Positions 305 through 62,865 of a stretch of DNA of 64,000 nucleotides are shown in pieces. The notes under the pieces were generated by a model that worked only from the letters and a program-made list of their open reading frames with translations, was not told where the DNA came from and searched no databases. Position 1 is the first letter of the stretch; every line of letters starts with the position of its first letter. The DNA is from Escherichia coli (GTDB lineage Bacteria; Pseudomonadota; Gammaproteobacteria; Enterobacterales; Enterobacteriaceae): the NCBI RefSeq assembly GCF_003334815.1, contig NZ_QOWO01000012.1, one strand, 5' to 3'. Both the position numbers and the translations under genes were made by a program.

Positions 305-1162
305 TCAGCCTAAAACTGCCAGTTTTTCGAGCGTTTCGAAGCCGTAACGCTGTAAAACGGGCAATAATTGTTCAGCTCCTGGCGTCATTGCCATACAAAA
401 GGCAATATTCGCATCGGCAGATTTTGCATCCGGGGCTTCATGTTCTAACAACCAGGCCGTTCGGCGAGCAATCGCTGCGCCAGAATCCACCAGCCGGGTT
501 CCCTCTGGCAGCACTTGTAACAGTTCTTCTTGTAGTAGAGGGAAATGGGTGCAACCCAATACAACGGTATCTGGCGGCTCTTTCATTCTTAACCACGGGC
601 GTAGGATACGTTTTAGTGCATCCAGAGAAACATCTTCGCCATGTAGCTTCGCTTCAGCCAACTCAACCATCTCTGCCGAGCCCAGCATTTCTATCTGGCA
701 TTCATTAGCGAAACGCGCGATCAGCTCATGAGTATAAGAACGTTTAACTGTTCCGCGGGTTGCCAGTAATCCGACAATGCCATTTGCCGTCAGACGTGCA
801 GCAGGTTTAATCGCCGGCACGACACCAACAACCGGGAAGTCGAACTTTTCGCGTAATGCAGGAAGTGAAACGGTACTGGCAGTGTTGCAAGCGACCACAG
901 CCAGCGCAAGGGGATAACGTTCTTGCACCGCGGTGACAATTGCCACCACTCGCTCAACAATAAACGCTTCGCTTTTTTCGCCATACGGGAAAGCGACGTT
1001 ATCGAAAGCATAAATGTAATGGAGATCCGGTAAGAGATGCCGGATCTCGTCATAGACCGACAACCCACCGACGCCGGAGTCAAACACCAGCACGGTGGGA
1101 CGTGGTTCAGAAGGTGTAGCTGCCAGACAAGGTGTATTCCCGTCCTGCAGTTTGGTAGCCAT
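305..1162 (-). CDS. murI: Glutamate racemase
   Basis: ORF 305..1174; translation is glutamate racemase (VFDSGVGG and GCTHFP motifs); start trimmed to the MATKLQ methionine; 5' end lies inside the btuB 3' end. Confidence 0.95.
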
Positions 1163-4420: not shown

Positions 4421-4459
4421 AACCCATGCCGGATGCGCCAGCATCCGGCATAATACCGA

Positions 4460-4819
4460 TTACTCAGCAACTTCCTGCTTACGGTTACGCATCTTCGCGC
4501 CAATCCAGAACACCATAATGACGGAGAGTACTGCCGGGAAGAAGTTAGAGCCGATATCCGGATATTCCGCACGAACTACCGTGCTGTACAGCAGTACGCC
4601 GAGAATAAAACAGGCAGCTGCCAGACCCGGCAAGCCTACCGGCATAGTGCGATTAAGATAACGTTGATGCAGGCAGTAAACCGTCAGCACCAGGGAAATA
4701 ATCGGGAATACAGAAAATGGCACAATGGAGCTAAACAGCGCTGCGAAAGTACCATTAATCGATAAGCCAGCAACTAACGCCAGCAGCAGCGTACCTCTAT
4801 CTTGATTTGCTTGTTTCAT
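4460..4819 (-). CDS. yijD: Small inner-membrane protein YijD (DUF1422)
   Basis: 119-aa hydrophobic ORF; start codon overlaps fabR stop (TAATG). Confidence 0.85.
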
Positions 4820-5523
4820 TACTCGTCCTTCACATTTCCCGGAATAATTGCGGTTTTCTCTTGTTCACGGCGATACCAGTAATAAGCCCCTTTCGAAATC
4901 ATTCGCAGTTGCAGTACCAGTCGCTCTTCTAATTGCCGACGTTGTTCGACGCCGACGTCCAACGCCTCGGCACCCGCACTGAAGACAATTGTCACCATTG
5001 CTTCGGCTTGCGCTTCAGTAAACGCACGCGGCATATGGTTTTCGAGTTCCAGATAGTCCGCAAGTTCCGCAATGAAGTGCTGAATTTCACGCGCAACGGC
5101 GGCACGAAACGCAGCGGAGGTGCCGGAGCGTTCCCGCAATAATAACCGGAAGGCGTTAGGATTATTACCGATGAACTCCATAAATGTGGAGACCGAGGTG
5201 CGGATCACACTCCCGCCTTTGGCGATACGCTGACGCGCCTGGCGCATGAGTTGGCGTAGCATTAAACCGCTCTCATCAACCATGGTCAGACCCAGTTCGT
5301 CTACGTCGCGGAAATGCCGATAAAAAGAGGTGGGAGCAATGCCCGCTTCACGCGCCACTTCACGCAAACTCAGGCTGGCGAAGCTGCGTTCAGCACTTAA
5401 TTGGCTAAATGCGGCTTCCACCAGCGAACGGCGGGTTTTTTCTTTTTGTTGCGCTCTTACGCCCATCACGATGTCTGAATCCTTGCCAAAAGTACTGCTG
5501 GCACTATACCAGAGAATGAACAT
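4819..5523 (-). CDS. fabR: TetR-family repressor of unsaturated fatty-acid synthesis
   Basis: ORF 4819..5562; TetR-type helix-turn-helix near the N-terminus; start chosen at MFILWYS (an upstream in-frame ATG at 5562 is also possible). Confidence 0.88.
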
Positions 5524-5799: not shown

Positions 5800-7200
5800 A
5801 TGCCACATTCCTACGATTACGATGCCATAGTAATAGGTTCCGGCCCCGGCGGCGAAGGCGCTGCAATGGGCCTGGTTAAGCAAGGTGCGCGCGTCGCAGT
5901 TATCGAGCGTTATCAAAATGTTGGCGGCGGTTGCACCCACTGGGGCACCATCCCGTCGAAAGCTCTCCGTCACGCCGTCAGCCGCATTATAGAATTCAAT
6001 CAAAACCCACTTTACAGCGACCATTCCCGACTGCTCCGCTCTTCTTTTGCCGATATCCTTAACCATGCCGATAACGTGATTAATCAACAAACGCGCATGC
6101 GTCAGGGATTTTACGAACGTAATCACTGTGAAATATTGCAGGGAAACGCTCGCTTTGTTGACGAGCATACGTTGGCGCTGGATTGCCCGGACGGCAGCGT
6201 TGAAACACTAACCGCTGAAAAATTTGTTATTGCCTGCGGCTCTCGTCCATATCATCCAACAGATGTTGATTTCACCCATCCACGCATTTACGACAGCGAC
6301 TCAATTCTCAGCATGCACCACGAACCGCGCCATGTACTTATCTATGGTGCTGGAGTGATCGGCTGTGAATATGCGTCGATCTTCCGCGGTATGGATGTAA
6401 AAGTGGATCTGATCAACACCCGCGATCGCCTGCTGGCATTTCTCGATCAAGAGATGTCAGATTCTCTCTCCTATCACTTCTGGAACAGTGGCGTAGTGAT
6501 TCGTCACAACGAAGAGTACGAGAAGATCGAAGGCTGTGACGATGGTGTGATCATGCATCTGAAGTCGGGTAAAAAACTGAAAGCTGACTGCCTGCTCTAT
6601 GCCAACGGTCGCACCGGTAATACCGATTCGCTGGCGTTACAGAACATTGGGCTAGAAACTGACAGCCGCGGACAGCTGAAGGTCAACAGCATGTATCAGA
6701 CCGCACAGCCACACGTTTACGCGGTGGGCGACGTGATTGGTTATCCGAGCCTGGCGTCGGCGGCCTATGACCAGGGGCGCATTGCCGCGCAGGCGCTGGT
6801 AAAAGGCGAAGCCACCGCACATCTGATTGAAGATATCCCTACCGGTATTTACACCATCCCGGAAATCAGCTCTGTGGGCAAAACCGAACAGCAGCTGACC
6901 GCAATGAAAGTGCCATATGAAGTGGGCCGCGCCCAGTTTAAACATCTGGCACGCGCACAAATCGTCGGCATGAACGTGGGCACGCTGAAAATTTTGTTCC
7001 ATCGGGAAACAAAAGAGATTCTGGGTATTCACTGCTTTGGCGAGCGCGCTGCCGAAATTATTCATATCGGTCAGGCGATTATGGAACAGAAAGGTGGCGG
7101 CAACACTATTGAGTACTTCGTCAACACCACCTTTAACTACCCGACGATGGCGGAAGCCTATCGGGTAGCTGCGTTAAACGGTTTAAACCGCCTGTTTTAA
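5800..7200 (+). CDS. sthA: Soluble pyridine nucleotide transhydrogenase
   Basis: 466-aa ORF; FAD-binding GSGPGG motif and flavoprotein disulfide reductase family architecture. Confidence 0.95.
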
Positions 7201-34199: not shown

Positions 34200-36632
34200 T
34201 TACAACAACTGTGCCAGCCGGTTGATATCCGACTGAATCGCCCCGGCGGTGACGTCGCGCCCAGCGCCAGGTCCGCGGATCACCAGAGGGTTATCGCGAT
34301 ACCAGCGGCTTTCGATGGCAAAGACGTTATCGCACGGCAGCAGTGATGCCAACGGATGATCTTCACGCACCGCTTCCACGCCTACACGCGCTTTACCGTT
34401 GGCATCGAAACGCGCCACGTAGCGCAGCACCAGCCCCATTTCGCGGGCCGCTTCCAGCCGTTGCACCATCTGCTCGTTCAGTTCATCGCCATTTTCAAAG
34501 AAATGGTCGATGCTGCCGCCTTCGCAATGAGCAGGCACCAGCGATTCCACACGTACCTGATCCGGTTCGATGTTGTAACCTGCTTCACGCGCCAGAATCA
34601 CCAGCTTGCGCATCACGTCTTTGCCAGAGAGATCGTCACGCGGGTCAGGTTCGGTTAAGCCCTGCTGCCACGCCTGATCCACCAGCTCGGTAAACGGCAC
34701 GCTACCGTCGAATTGCAGGAACAGCCAGGAGAGCGTGCCGGAGAAGATCCCGCTGATCGACAAAATAGTATCGCCGCTGTCGATCAGATCGCGCACGGTG
34801 TGGTTGATCGGCAAGCCCGCACCGACGGTGGCATTGTACAGCCAGTGACGCCCGGTTTTTTCGAAGGCGTCGTGGATCTGGCGATATTTATTGCTGTCGC
34901 TGGCTCCCGCCAGTTTGTTGGCGCTGATAACGTGGAAACCGTGGCTGGCGAAATCAAGATACTGATCAGCAAGCTGCTGGCTGGCGGTAACGTCCAGCAC
35001 CACTAAATCATCATACGGATGGGCGCGCATCCACAGGAACAACGACTCTTCATCCTGCTCAACCGCTTCATCGTTGAAGAAGGCTAACGCGCGGCTGGCG
35101 TCCAGCCCGTCATAGCTCAACAGGCTGCGGCGGCTGTCCACCACACCTGCCAGCACAAACTCAAAGCCGGTACGTGCCGAAAGCGTGCTCTGCTCACGGG
35201 CGAACAGTTCCAGCCAACGGGAACCGATATTGCCCTTACCGAACAATACCAGGCCGATGCGTTTTTCTGCGCGGAAGACGGACTGATGCAGCCCCTGAAT
35301 CAGGCTTTCGGTCGGGCCGGTGCGCAGTACTGCCACCAGGCTGATGCCGTCATCGGACTGCCAGGTAAATTCGACCGGCTGGCCTTTCAGTTGCTGCCAG
35401 AAGCGGTGGCAATGCAGCGGGTTACGGGTGACGCCTGCACCGACCATCGCCACCAGCGCCAGCCCCTGACGCAGGCGCAGTTCGCCAGGTAATCCCGCTT
35501 CGTCGAGGATTTTCAGCGCACTGTCGGCCACTTCTGAGGTGTAGCAAAATTGCAGCAACTGGCGATCGTTATGTACGCCAACCGCCAGCGGGCGTACCTG
35601 CGCGCGTTTCAGGATTTGGTCGATCTCTTTATGCGCCAGTTTGAAATCCTGACTGGCGGGCACCTGAAACTCAATCAAACAGACATCATCGTGGCTGGTG
35701 ACAATACGCGCACCAGTACCGGAGGCCAGCACGCGTTCAATGCGCGTGGAACCTTGATCCGGCGTGTAGCTACAGCGCAGTTGCAGGTCGATTTCGCTGC
35801 CAGAAACCGGCTGTAAAGTACGGGCGTGAAGAACGGGAGCCGCCAGGCGCGCCAGTTCGCTGGCCTCATCCAGACGCAGCAACGGCAGCAGGCAGGCATC
35901 TTTCACTTTACGCGGGTCGGCACTGTATACCCCGGCGACGTCGCTCCAGATGGTTACGCGAGAAACACCCGCCAGCGCACCGATTTGTGTCGCGGAATAG
36001 TCGGAACCGTTACGCCCCAGCAGCACCGTTTCACCGGCGTTGTTGCGGCTGATAAATCCGGTCACCACCAGACGTTTGCCCGGATGTTGCACCAGCAGCT
36101 GTTGCAGCAACGGGTAAGAAAGCCCTTCATCAACCTGCGGTTGTGCGGCGCGTTCAGCGCGTAAAAACTCGCGGGCATCAAGCCAGGCCGCTGGCAGCCC
36201 TTGTTGATTAAGTACCGCAGACATCAGACGTGCCGACCATACTTCCCCGTGGCCCACCACTTCCGCATACACTGCGTCGTTAATACCGCTGTCGAGCAGC
36301 GCCGCCAGGCGCTCAAGGTCGCTGACAAAAGCGCTAATGAGGCTATCGGCTTCTTCAGCGGGTAGCAGACCGCTAATCAGATCGCACTGATAGCGACGCA
36401 GCGTTTGTTGAACCTGATGCGCAGAGAGACGATCGGTCTGGCTTAGTTTCAACCAGTTAATCAACTGGTTAGTGGTGCTACCGGCGGCGGAAACCACCAT
36501 CATATCGTCAGGCTGAGAGTACTCCGCCATAATGCCCGCGACACGCAAATAACACTTCACATCAGCCAGACTACTGCCACCAAATTTATGCAGCTGACGA
36601 CCTTTCGCCCCTGCCTGCGCAATCACACTCAT
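34200..36632 (-). CDS. metL: Bifunctional aspartokinase II / homoserine dehydrogenase II
   Basis: 810-aa ORF; N-terminal aspartokinase and C-terminal homoserine dehydrogenase domains. Confidence 0.97.
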   Translation of the reverse strand: MSVIAQAGAKGRQLHKFGGSSLADVKCYLRVAGIMAEYSQPDDMMVVSAAGSTTNQLINWLKLSQTDRLSAHQVQQTLRRYQCDLISGLLPAEEADSLISAFVSDLERLAALLDSGINDAVYAEVVGHGEVWSARLMSAVLNQQGLPAAWLDAREFLRAERAAQPQVDEGLSYPLLQQLLVQHPGKRLVVTGFISRNNAGETVLLGRNGSDYSATQIGALAGVSRVTIWSDVAGVYSADPRKVKDACLLPLLRLDEASELARLAAPVLHARTLQPVSGSEIDLQLRCSYTPDQGSTRIERVLASGTGARIVTSHDDVCLIEFQVPASQDFKLAHKEIDQILKRAQVRPLAVGVHNDRQLLQFCYTSEVADSALKILDEAGLPGELRLRQGLALVAMVGAGVTRNPLHCHRFWQQLKGQPVEFTWQSDDGISLVAVLRTGPTESLIQGLHQSVFRAEKRIGLVLFGKGNIGSRWLELFAREQSTLSARTGFEFVLAGVVDSRRSLLSYDGLDASRALAFFNDEAVEQDEESLFLWMRAHPYDDLVVLDVTASQQLADQYLDFASHGFHVISANKLAGASDSNKYRQIHDAFEKTGRHWLYNATVGAGLPINHTVRDLIDSGDTILSISGIFSGTLSWLFLQFDGSVPFTELVDQAWQQGLTEPDPRDDLSGKDVMRKLVILAREAGYNIEPDQVRVESLVPAHCEGGSIDHFFENGDELNEQMVQRLEAAREMGLVLRYVARFDANGKARVGVEAVREDHPLASLLPCDNVFAIESRWYRDNPLVIRGPGAGRDVTAGAIQSDINRLAQLL

Positions 36633-36634
36633 TT

Positions 36635-60796: not shown

Positions 60797-61495
60797 ATGA
60801 ATAAAATCCTGTTAGTTGATGATGACCGAGAGCTGACTTCCCTATTAAAGGAGCTGCTCGAGATGGAAGGCTTCAACGTGATTGTTGCCCACGATGGGGA
60901 ACAGGCGCTTGATCTTCTGGACGACAGCATTGATTTACTTTTGCTTGACGTAATGATGCCGAAGAAAAATGGTATCGACACATTAAAAGCACTTCGCCAG
61001 ACACACCAGACGCCTGTCATTATGTTGACGGCGCGCGGCAGTGAACTTGATCGCGTTCTCGGCCTTGAGCTGGGCGCAGATGACTATCTCCCGAAACCGT
61101 TTAATGATCGTGAGCTGGTGGCACGTATTCGCGCGATCCTGCGCCGTTCGCACTGGAGCGAGCAACAGCAAAACAACGACAACGGTTCACCGACACTGGA
61201 AGTTGATGCCTTAGTGCTGAATCCAGGCCGTCAGGAAGCCAGCTTCGACGGGCAAACGCTGGAGTTAACCGGTACTGAGTTTACCCTGCTCTATTTGCTG
61301 GCACAGCATCTGGGTCAGGTGGTTTCCCGTGAACATTTAAGCCAGGAAGTGTTGGGCAAACGCCTGACGCCTTTCGACCGCGCTATTGATATGCACATTT
61401 CCAACCTGCGTCGTAAACTGCCGGATCGTAAAGATGGTCACCCGTGGTTTAAAACCTTGCGTGGTCGCGGCTATCTGATGGTTTCTGCTTCATGA
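60797..61495 (+). CDS. cpxR: OmpR-family response regulator CpxR
   Basis: 232-aa ORF; receiver domain (LLLDVMMP) plus winged-helix output domain. Confidence 0.97.
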   Translation: MNKILLVDDDRELTSLLKELLEMEGFNVIVAHDGEQALDLLDDSIDLLLLDVMMPKKNGIDTLKALRQTHQTPVIMLTARGSELDRVLGLELGADDYLPKPFNDRELVARIRAILRRSHWSEQQQNNDNGSPTLEVDALVLNPGRQEASFDGQTLELTGTEFTLLYLLAQHLGQVVSREHLSQEVLGKRLTPFDRAIDMHISNLRRKLPDRKDGHPWFKTLRGRGYLMVSAS

Positions 61496-62865
61496 TAGGC
61501 AGCTTAACCGCGCGCATCTTCGCCATCTTCTGGCTGACGCTGGCGCTGGTGTTGATGTTGGTTTTGATGTTACCCAAGCTCGATTCACGCCAGATGACCG
61601 AGCTTCTGGATAGCGAACAGCGTCAGGGGCTGATGATTGAGCAGCATGTCGAAGCGGAGCTGGCGAACGATCCGCCCAACGATTTAATGTGGTGGCGGCG
61701 TCTGTTCCGGGCGATTGATAAGTGGGCACCGCCAGGACAGCGTTTGTTATTGGTGACCACCGAAGGCCGCGTGATCGGCGCTGAACGCAGCGAAATGCAG
61801 ATCATTCGTAACTTTATTGGTCAGGCCGATAACGCCGATCATCCGCAGAAGAAAAAGTATGGCCGCGTGGAACTGGTCGGTCCGTTCTCCGTGCGTGATG
61901 GCGAAGATAATTACCAACTTTATCTGATTCGTCCGGCCAGCAGTTCTCAATCCGATTTCATTAACTTACTGTTTGACCGCCCGCTATTACTGCTGATTGT
62001 CACCATGTTGGTCAGTACGCCGCTGCTGTTGTGGTTGGCCTGGAGTCTGGCAAAACCGGCGCGTAAGCTGAAAAACGCTGCCGATGAAGTTGCCCAGGGA
62101 AACTTACGCCAGCACCCGGAACTGGAAGCGGGGCCACAGGAATTCCTTGCCGCAGGTGCCAGTTTTAACCAGATGGTCACCGCGCTGGAGCGCATGATGA
62201 CCTCTCAGCAGCGTCTGCTTTCTGATATCTCTCACGAGCTGCGCACCCCGCTGACGCGTCTGCAACTGGGTACGGCGTTACTGCGCCGTCGTAGCGGTGA
62301 AAGCAAGGAACTGGAGCGTATTGAAACCGAAGCGCAACGTCTGGACAGCATGATCAACGATCTGTTGGTGATGTCACGTAATCAGCAAAAAAACGCGCTG
62401 GTTAGCGAAACCATCAAAGCCAACCAGTTGTGGAGTGAAGTGCTGGATAACGCGGCGTTCGAAGCCGAGCAAATGGGCAAGTCGTTGACAGTTAACTTCC
62501 CGCCTGGGCCGTGGCCGCTGTACGGCAATCCGAACGCCCTGGAAAGTGCGCTGGAAAACATTGTTCGTAATGCTCTGCGTTATTCCCATACGAAGATTGA
62601 AGTGGGCTTTGCGGTAGATAAAGACGGTATCACCATTACGGTGGACGACGATGGTCCTGGCGTTAGCCCGGAAGATCGCGAACAGATTTTCCGTCCGTTC
62701 TATCGTACCGATGAAGCACGCGATCGTGAATCTGGCGGTACAGGTTTGGGGCTGGCGATTGTTGAAACCGCCATTCAGCAGCATCGTGGCTGGGTGAAGG
62801 CAGAAGACAGCCCGCTGGGCGGTTTACGGCTGGTGATTTGGTTGCCGCTGTATAAGCGGAGTTAA
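61492..62865 (+). CDS. cpxA: Sensor histidine kinase CpxA
   Basis: 457-aa ORF; two TM helices, HAMP, H-box SHELRTPLT, ATPase G-boxes; start overlaps the cpxR stop (ATGA). Confidence 0.97.
   Translation: MIGSLTARIFAIFWLTLALVLMLVLMLPKLDSRQMTELLDSEQRQGLMIEQHVEAELANDPPNDLMWWRRLFRAIDKWAPPGQRLLLVTTEGRVIGAERSEMQIIRNFIGQADNADHPQKKKYGRVELVGPFSVRDGEDNYQLYLIRPASSSQSDFINLLFDRPLLLLIVTMLVSTPLLLWLAWSLAKPARKLKNAADEVAQGNLRQHPELEAGPQEFLAAGASFNQMVTALERMMTSQQRLLSDISHELRTPLTRLQLGTALLRRRSGESKELERIETEAQRLDSMINDLLVMSRNQQKNALVSETIKANQLWSEVLDNAAFEAEQMGKSLTVNFPPGPWPLYGNPNALESALENIVRNALRYSHTKIEVGFAVDKDGITITVDDDGPGVSPEDREQIFRPFYRTDEARDRESGGTGLGLAIVETAIQQHRGWVKAEDSPLGGLRLVIWLPLYKRS

Follow-up and report, generated by a model that had tools for sequence, protein, structure and literature searches.

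This study revealed that five closely spaced gene junctions of Escherichia coli, fabR-yijD, cpxR-cpxA, pflD-pflC, pflC-frwD and metB-metL, are very probably ordinary, already annotated boundaries within operons, at which the two genes share one mRNA and translation of the downstream gene does not follow the same route in every pair. Among the pairs for which expression data are available, cpxR-cpxA alone fits coupling by termination and reinitiation, given the lack of a Shine-Dalgarno (SD) sequence before cpxA, the ratio of ribosome densities and the conservation of the ATGA overlap. The share of reinitiation at each junction is what we infer from the coordinates, the SD sequences, the conservation and the published densities described below. 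The junctions themselves are already known, as every E. coli annotation contains them and a published genome-wide table lists them.

Position and setting of the junctions

The window, which is the whole stretch of 64,000 nucleotides analysed here, is a K-12-like segment of the E. coli chromosome. It runs antiparallel to MG1655, spans about 4,102,467 to 4,166,589 of that genome and shows 99.97% identity to it, with 15 mismatches and one 123-nt deletion. All MG1655 gene models lying wholly within the window (56/56) correspond to ORFs that are intact and properly bounded by start and stop codons, and the first 25 kb of the window are identical in strain NCTC9038 and in several K-12 derivatives. 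The 123-nt deletion, which is the sole length difference from MG1655 across the 64 kb, is located in the argE-ppc intergenic region (12894-13121), a repetitive stretch that contains one repeat unit fewer than in MG1655.

A sequence-only reading of this DNA had proposed the five junctions as marks of translational coupling and as definitions of operon units. Its gene names, coordinates and distances proved exact to the base, both in the window and in comparison with the K-12 distances of Huber et al. 2023 (PMC10666635, supplementary file 3), which are -1 for fabR-yijD, -4 for cpxR-cpxA, -35 for pflD-pflC, +1 for pflC-frwD and +2 for metB-metL. The TAATG and ATGA motifs, the 35-nt overlap and the gaps of 2 nt and 1 nt could all be read directly in the sequence, and the five junctions are identical in the PGAP annotation of an unrelated E. 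coli strain. The features are listed below; SD sequences were scored as the energy of the duplex with the anti-SD of 16S rRNA, for which the window median is -6.1 kcal/mol.

4817..4821, minus strand: TAATG junction; the fabR TAA (4821..4819) shares one A with the yijD ATG (4819..4817), a 1-nt overlap
4819..5523, minus strand: fabR CDS, K-12 model, 234 aa, mapped from MG1655
4460..4819, minus strand: yijD CDS, 119 aa, DUF1422 inner-membrane protein (NF008278 equivalog, 203 bits against a cut-off of 127)
4826..4830, minus strand: yijD SD AAGGA, 6 nt before the ATG, within the fabR tail (anti-SD duplex -5.4 kcal/mol)
4424..4453, minus strand: terminator-like hairpin just past the yijD stop (hairpin scan)
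20175..20209, minus strand: out-of-frame pflD-pflC overlap, 35 nt (pflD end 20175, pflC start 20209)
20175..22472, minus strand: pflD CDS, 765 aa, mapped from MG1655
19331..20209, minus strand: pflC CDS, 292 aa (NF007483 matches residues 1-292 of 292, 627 bits against a cut-off of 326)
20217..20222, minus strand: pflC SD AAGGAG, within pflD, 7 nt before the ATG (anti-SD duplex -8.8 kcal/mol)
18988..19329, minus strand: frwD CDS, 113 aa; base 19330 separates it from the pflC stop (19331)
36633..36634, minus strand: 2-nt spacer between the metB stop (36637..36635) and the metL ATG (36632..36630)
36635..37795, minus strand: metB CDS, 386 aa, mapped from MG1655
34200..36632, minus strand: metL CDS, 810 aa, mapped from MG1655
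61492..61495, plus strand: ATGA junction, 4-nt overlap of the cpxA ATG (61492..61494) and the cpxR TGA (61493..61495)
60797..61495, plus strand: cpxR CDS, 232 aa, mapped from MG1655
61492..62865, plus strand: cpxA CDS, 457 aa, mapped from MG1655

By themselves, the strings TAATG and ATGA are uninformative, since they occur 130 and 530 times in the window (both strands), which is about the uniform expectation; the non-random part is their placement where two long ORFs meet. Distances between -8 and +6 were found for 4 of the 37 same-strand neighbour pairs, compared with about one if distances were evenly spread (P = 0.02). This share is below the 23.7% (707/2,987) found across the E. coli genome, and the window is, if anything, poor in such tight junctions. 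The distances -4 and -1 are the commonest for same-strand genes in E. coli and in 1,695 other genomes, and overlaps of more than 8 nt are rare in E. coli (PMC10666635). Stop and start codons overlap or nearly abut at fabR-yijD, cpxRA, metBL and pflC-frwD. The pair pflD-pflC had been counted with the start/stop overlaps, but its 35 nt constitute an out-of-frame coding overlap instead.

Further tight same-strand pairs, which were absent from the earlier list, are btuB-murI (-56), argC-argB (+7), hslV-hslU (+9), fsaB-gldA (+10), ptsA-fsaB (+11) and frwC-frwB (+14). No same-strand overlap in the window is longer than the 56 nt shared by btuB and murI (1107-1162, minus strand), and the SD of murI is nearly absent (-2.7 kcal/mol). 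The 3' ends overlap in two convergent pairs, namely sthA/oxyR (18 nt, 7183-7200) and yijO/frwD (14 nt, 18988-19001).

Shared transcripts and their extent

That each pair is carried on one mRNA is well supported by the scans, the literature and the similar mRNA levels of the three pairs with data. All five junctions lacked a terminator-like hairpin in a consensus scan, and a weak consensus scan of the gene strand over the ~300 nt before yijD, cpxA, pflC, frwD and metL gave no promoter-like site; the totals of promoter-like matches were at or below the expectation from shuffled sequences. Moreover, the distances leave no space for a terminator plus a promoter, which supports co-transcription. 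Published mRNA values (Burkhardt et al. 2017, PMC5318159) are 155.9 for fabR and 129.4 for yijD, 400.5 for metB and 358.2 for metL, and 204.6 for cpxR and 103.7 for cpxA. Both fabR-yijD and cpxRA are treated as operons in the literature, and the metBL operon is attributed to Greene and Smith (1984) by a paper that cites them.

Within fabR, Term-seq placed an RNA 3' end at about 4956 of the window (MG1655 4161634, + strand in MG1655), 137 nt upstream of yijD (Adams et al. 2021, PMC7815308). This end was seen under two conditions, does not depend on Rho and could be a processing site or partial termination inside the operon. It introduces some discontinuity into the RNA and, together with one promoter-like match within fabR (5190..5161) and the fact that translation is higher for yijD and metL than for the genes before them, it lends some weight to the idea that the downstream genes are mainly driven by promoters of their own within the upstream coding sequences, and that spacing says little about co-expression. 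We nevertheless consider this idea quite unlikely: the near-equal mRNA levels of fabR and yijD and of metB and metL indicate that the excess lies in translation efficiency rather than in RNA, the feature within fabR is a 3' end and not a 5' end, and both the promoter scan and the operon status of fabR-yijD, metBL and cpxRA argue against it. Carriage of each pair on one mRNA therefore remains the preferred reading, and the hairpin just past the yijD stop (4424..4453) is likely to represent the end of the fabR-yijD transcript, as judged from its sequence.

With regard to operon units, the junctions thus point to co-transcription of each pair, but they do not delimit operons, because frwC-frwB (+14) and frwB-pflD (+50) lie upstream of pflDC-frwD on the same strand. 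These two pairs may belong with pflDC-frwD. The 50-nt gap between frwB and pflD contains a GC-rich terminator-like hairpin, CCCGCTCGCAAGGGCGGG, with a T-rich tail (22514..22497, minus strand). This hairpin may split or attenuate a frwCB-pflDC-frwD transcript, and one unit or two are both possible.

Routes of translation of the downstream genes

The published ribosome densities, which are a proxy for synthesis rate from a single study and are possibly biased for the membrane proteins YijD and CpxA, are 260.5 for cpxR and 21.4 for cpxA (downstream/upstream ratio 0.08), 93.7 for fabR and 212.2 for yijD (2.3), and 197.5 for metB and 351.6 for metL (1.8) (Burkhardt et al. 2017, PMC5318159; the pairs covered are fabR-yijD, metB-metL and cpxR-cpxA). 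Translation of the downstream gene stays at or below that of the upstream gene at cpxA/cpxR alone and exceeds it at yijD/fabR and metL/metB. The description of these pairs as translationally coupled accordingly fits cpxR-cpxA, where the SD is lacking and the ATGA is conserved, and does not fit yijD and metL, each of which has its own SD.

No recognisable SD precedes cpxA (anti-SD duplex -2.5 kcal/mol). The 12-fold step-down in ribosome density from cpxR to cpxA is partly an RNA-level effect, since cpxA mRNA is about half of that of cpxR (2-fold of the 12-fold). In the mechanism that we propose, ribosomes terminating at the cpxR UGA would occasionally restart at the overlapping cpxA AUG and, without an SD, would produce little kinase per regulator. 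A literature search on translational coupling of cpxA, and a wider search on the cpxA/cpxR overlap, returned nothing relevant, and no nonsense-mutation experiment on any of the five junctions was found in a literature search.

In E. coli, a hairpin buries the cpxA AUG (-26.2 kcal/mol, z -2.3). RNAalifold found no consensus structure at the cpxR-cpxA junction in 118 species (among the matches listed); on that same alignment of listed matches the E. coli hairpin pairs have 79% pairing potential and a covariation of 0.112, against 0.115 in shuffles. With no consensus structure and no covariation beyond shuffles, the hairpin, which would be a textbook device for coupling, was rejected as evidence, because conserved Tyr-Leu and Met-Ile codons can explain the pairing.

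The SD sequences of yijD and metL fall within the final part of the upstream gene; that of metL, AAGGGG, overlaps the last metB codons (-7.7 kcal/mol). Since the supply for reinitiation is limited to ribosomes that have completed the upstream gene, roughly half or more of the initiation on yijD and metL is independent and driven by the SD. Most initiation on these genes would thus occur by direct binding of 30S subunits to the shared mRNA, and reinitiation or ribosome-driven unfolding would contribute at most a part. The initiation region of yijD is unusually unstructured, with an MFE of -2.9 kcal/mol (z +2.56), and 200/200 shuffled sequences fold at least as well.

The start of fabR differs between annotations, being the ATG at 5523 in the K-12 record (234 aa) and 5469 in PGAP (216 aa), both on the minus strand. 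The FabR model NF008402 gives 414 bits against a cut-off of 151 and matches residues 19-224 of 234. As this match begins at residue 19 of the long FabR, the shorter protein of 216 aa is favoured.

For pflC and frwD, the latter with the SD GGGAGG (-10.9 kcal/mol), SD-driven initiation appears the most likely route, possibly aided by upstream ribosomes that open local structure. At pflC, direct SD-driven initiation is more likely than reinitiation because the latter requires a backward movement of the ribosome by 35 nt. The overlap would disappear if it were an annotation artefact and pflC truly started at the in-frame GTG at 20170..20168 (minus strand), 4 nt past the pflD TAA, which would make pflD-pflC a short-gap pair. 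The rarity in E. coli of overlaps longer than 8 nt speaks for such a start, but it is very improbable: the ATG at 20209 has a well-spaced AAGGAG whereas the GTG has no SD, 20209 is the start in the curated K-12 annotation as well as in PGAP, and the NCBIfam equivalog NF007483 aligns from residue 1. We therefore retain the start at 20209 and the 35-nt overlap.

The broader alternative is that all of the listed pairs are coupled by termination and reinitiation and that the junctions by themselves define operon units. Their geometry does belong to a class for which experiments in E. coli have demonstrated reinitiation, both at -1 and, less efficiently, at +2 (PMC10666635). Moreover, cpxA fits this scheme well, and partial reinitiation at yijD, metL and frwD is compatible with it. 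As a general account it is nonetheless unlikely, since ribosome densities of 2.3 and 1.8 times the upstream value at yijD and metL are unreachable by reinitiation alone and every downstream gene except cpxA has its own SD. The long backward movement at the 35-nt overlap, the frwCB genes upstream of pflDC-frwD, and the evolutionary lability of the fabR-yijD distance (-1 to +99), with an overlap born from a frameshift (see below), also stand against it. A route that differs between pairs on shared mRNAs is thus preferred.

Conservation of the overlaps and comparison with known pairs

The cpxRA junction was surveyed in one genome per species by scanning for the CpxR C-terminal peptide WFKTLRGRGYLM, which yielded at least 120 loci and covers motif-bearing orthologues only. 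Among the matches listed, the -4 overlap is kept in 110 of the 111 Enterobacterales species loci with enough flanking DNA; these 110 comprise 107 with ATGA, one with GTGA at -4 and two Budvicia loci in which ATGA is followed by an extra Met codon. Part of the conservation of ATGA follows from the Met-Ile start of CpxA, which is itself conserved. Across the listed loci, the last four codons of cpxR and the early codons of cpxA vary, and no recognisable cpxA SD was found in any cpxRA locus among these matches.

Proteus (L068, L120 and L123) is the exception to ATGA among the matches listed: it has a TTGA/GTGA relic and a new ATG 12 nt downstream. A new copy of ATGATAAAT is found 12 nt downstream of the old cpxA start, as if the junction had been duplicated. 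At another Enterobacterales locus (L138:12825-12904), cpxR ends early (…LMV, TAG) and the sequence beyond is unrelated to cpxA, which suggests that cpxRA is disrupted or rearranged there.

For YijD, a first search gave close relatives only, and divergent homologues were obtained by a search of a representative library. Of the 11 loci in which sufficient upstream DNA was present, 9 have a FabR-type gene (TetR_N + TetR_C_46) directly before yijD. The identity of YijD to the E. coli protein and the fabR-yijD gap are as follows:

L006: 43% identity, gap -1
Kosakonia: 79% identity, gap +3
Cronobacter: 78% identity, gap +10
Salmonella: 87% identity, gap +15
L005: 54% identity, gap +16
L013: 39% identity, gap +34
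L011: 68% identity, gap +35
L008: 42% identity, gap +52
L010: 35% identity, gap +99

YijD variants of 123 residues were considered as N-terminal extensions, which was ruled out, as their N-termini match that of E. coli.

In a nucleotide alignment, the block GTGAAGGA(C/T)GA(G/A)..ATG, which comprises the SD, the spacer and the start, is conserved in all four genera compared (4/4: E. coli, Salmonella, Cronobacter and Kosakonia), and the position of the fabR stop shifts. The following difference was located in the same alignment:

4848..4849, minus strand: 1-nt deletion relative to Salmonella (GCA[C]AT)

The base is missing from E. coli fabR relative to Salmonella, Cronobacter and Kosakonia alike (L017, L018, L019). 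In Salmonella, fabR ends with GCA CAT CAT TCC GAA TAA, followed by 15 nt and then the yijD ATG. The E. coli end, one base short, reads GCA-ATT ATT CCG GGA AAT GTG AAG GAC GAG TAA. Owing to this 1-nt deletion in the E. coli lineage, the reading frame of fabR continues past the former stop as far as a TAA that was already present and shares a base with the yijD ATG. The AHHSE with which Salmonella FabR ends is replaced in E. coli by a frameshifted tail of ~10 residues, which lies beyond the NF008402 match (ending at residue 224/234). The 71-nt junction is fixed within E. coli: among 5,426 complete genomes, it is at least 99% identical in 4,941 and at least 95% identical in the other 484 that matched. 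As judged from these alignments, the TAATG overlap is a young, lineage-specific by-product of a shifted stop, and what is conserved is the adjacency of the genes and the SD of yijD.

Taken together, it is possible, although we propose it tentatively, that the cpxRA ATGA has been selected across Enterobacterales, with reinitiation fixing a low kinase:regulator ratio independently of transcription, and that the fabR-yijD TAATG is a neutral and recent by-product. Coupling by termination and reinitiation was reportedly described by Oppenheim and Yanofsky in 1980 for trpE-trpD and trpB-trpA. Reinitiation has since been shown experimentally for other E. coli pairs, at -1 and, less efficiently, at +2, with an efficiency that drops steeply with distance; hyfH-hyfI, ydbH-ynbE and menD-menH are among the pairs tested (PMC10666635). 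Like the known coupled pairs at -4 (ATGA) and -1 (TAATG/TGATG), cpxR-cpxA and fabR-yijD combine the stop/start geometry with same-strand genes on one mRNA, and cpxA further resembles such pairs in lacking an SD and in having a rate of synthesis that is a fraction of that of cpxR. In contrast, at yijD, with its conserved SD, and at metL, at +2 and with an SD, the downstream density is higher than the upstream one, which indicates that reinitiation is not the main route.

The ompR-envZ operon is a known response regulator-histidine kinase operon with an ATGA overlap. As in operons of this type, the regulator is encoded ahead of the kinase in cpxRA, the two genes overlap by 4 nt, and the kinase is translated far less. 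Nothing in cpxRA is unusual for the type, and the addition made here is the census of the overlap (110 of 111 Enterobacterales species, among the matches listed). A further class consists of 203 E. coli operon pairs at about +9 to +12 nt with an intergenic SD (PMC10666635), whose members in the window are hslVU (+9), fsaB-gldA (+10) and ptsA-fsaB (+11). From their sequences, yijD, metL, pflC and frwD appear to resemble these pairs in SD-driven initiation on a polycistronic mRNA, whereas they differ from them in that the SD lies inside the upstream coding sequence and the gap is at most 2 nt.

The additions to what was known are modest: a deeply conserved, SD-less ATGA in cpxRA can be set against a recent, frameshift-made TAATG in fabR-yijD, and strict coupling of yijD and metL is contradicted by the ribosome densities in the literature. 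Short overlaps are thus reliable indicators of co-transcription, but not of translational coupling or of equal output. Conservation of the junction across species separates cpxRA from fabR-yijD, the two cases that were compared in this way. If the tentative reading of selection at cpxRA and neutrality at fabR-yijD is true, an overlap alone would be a poor predictor of coupling and the conservation of the overlap a better one.
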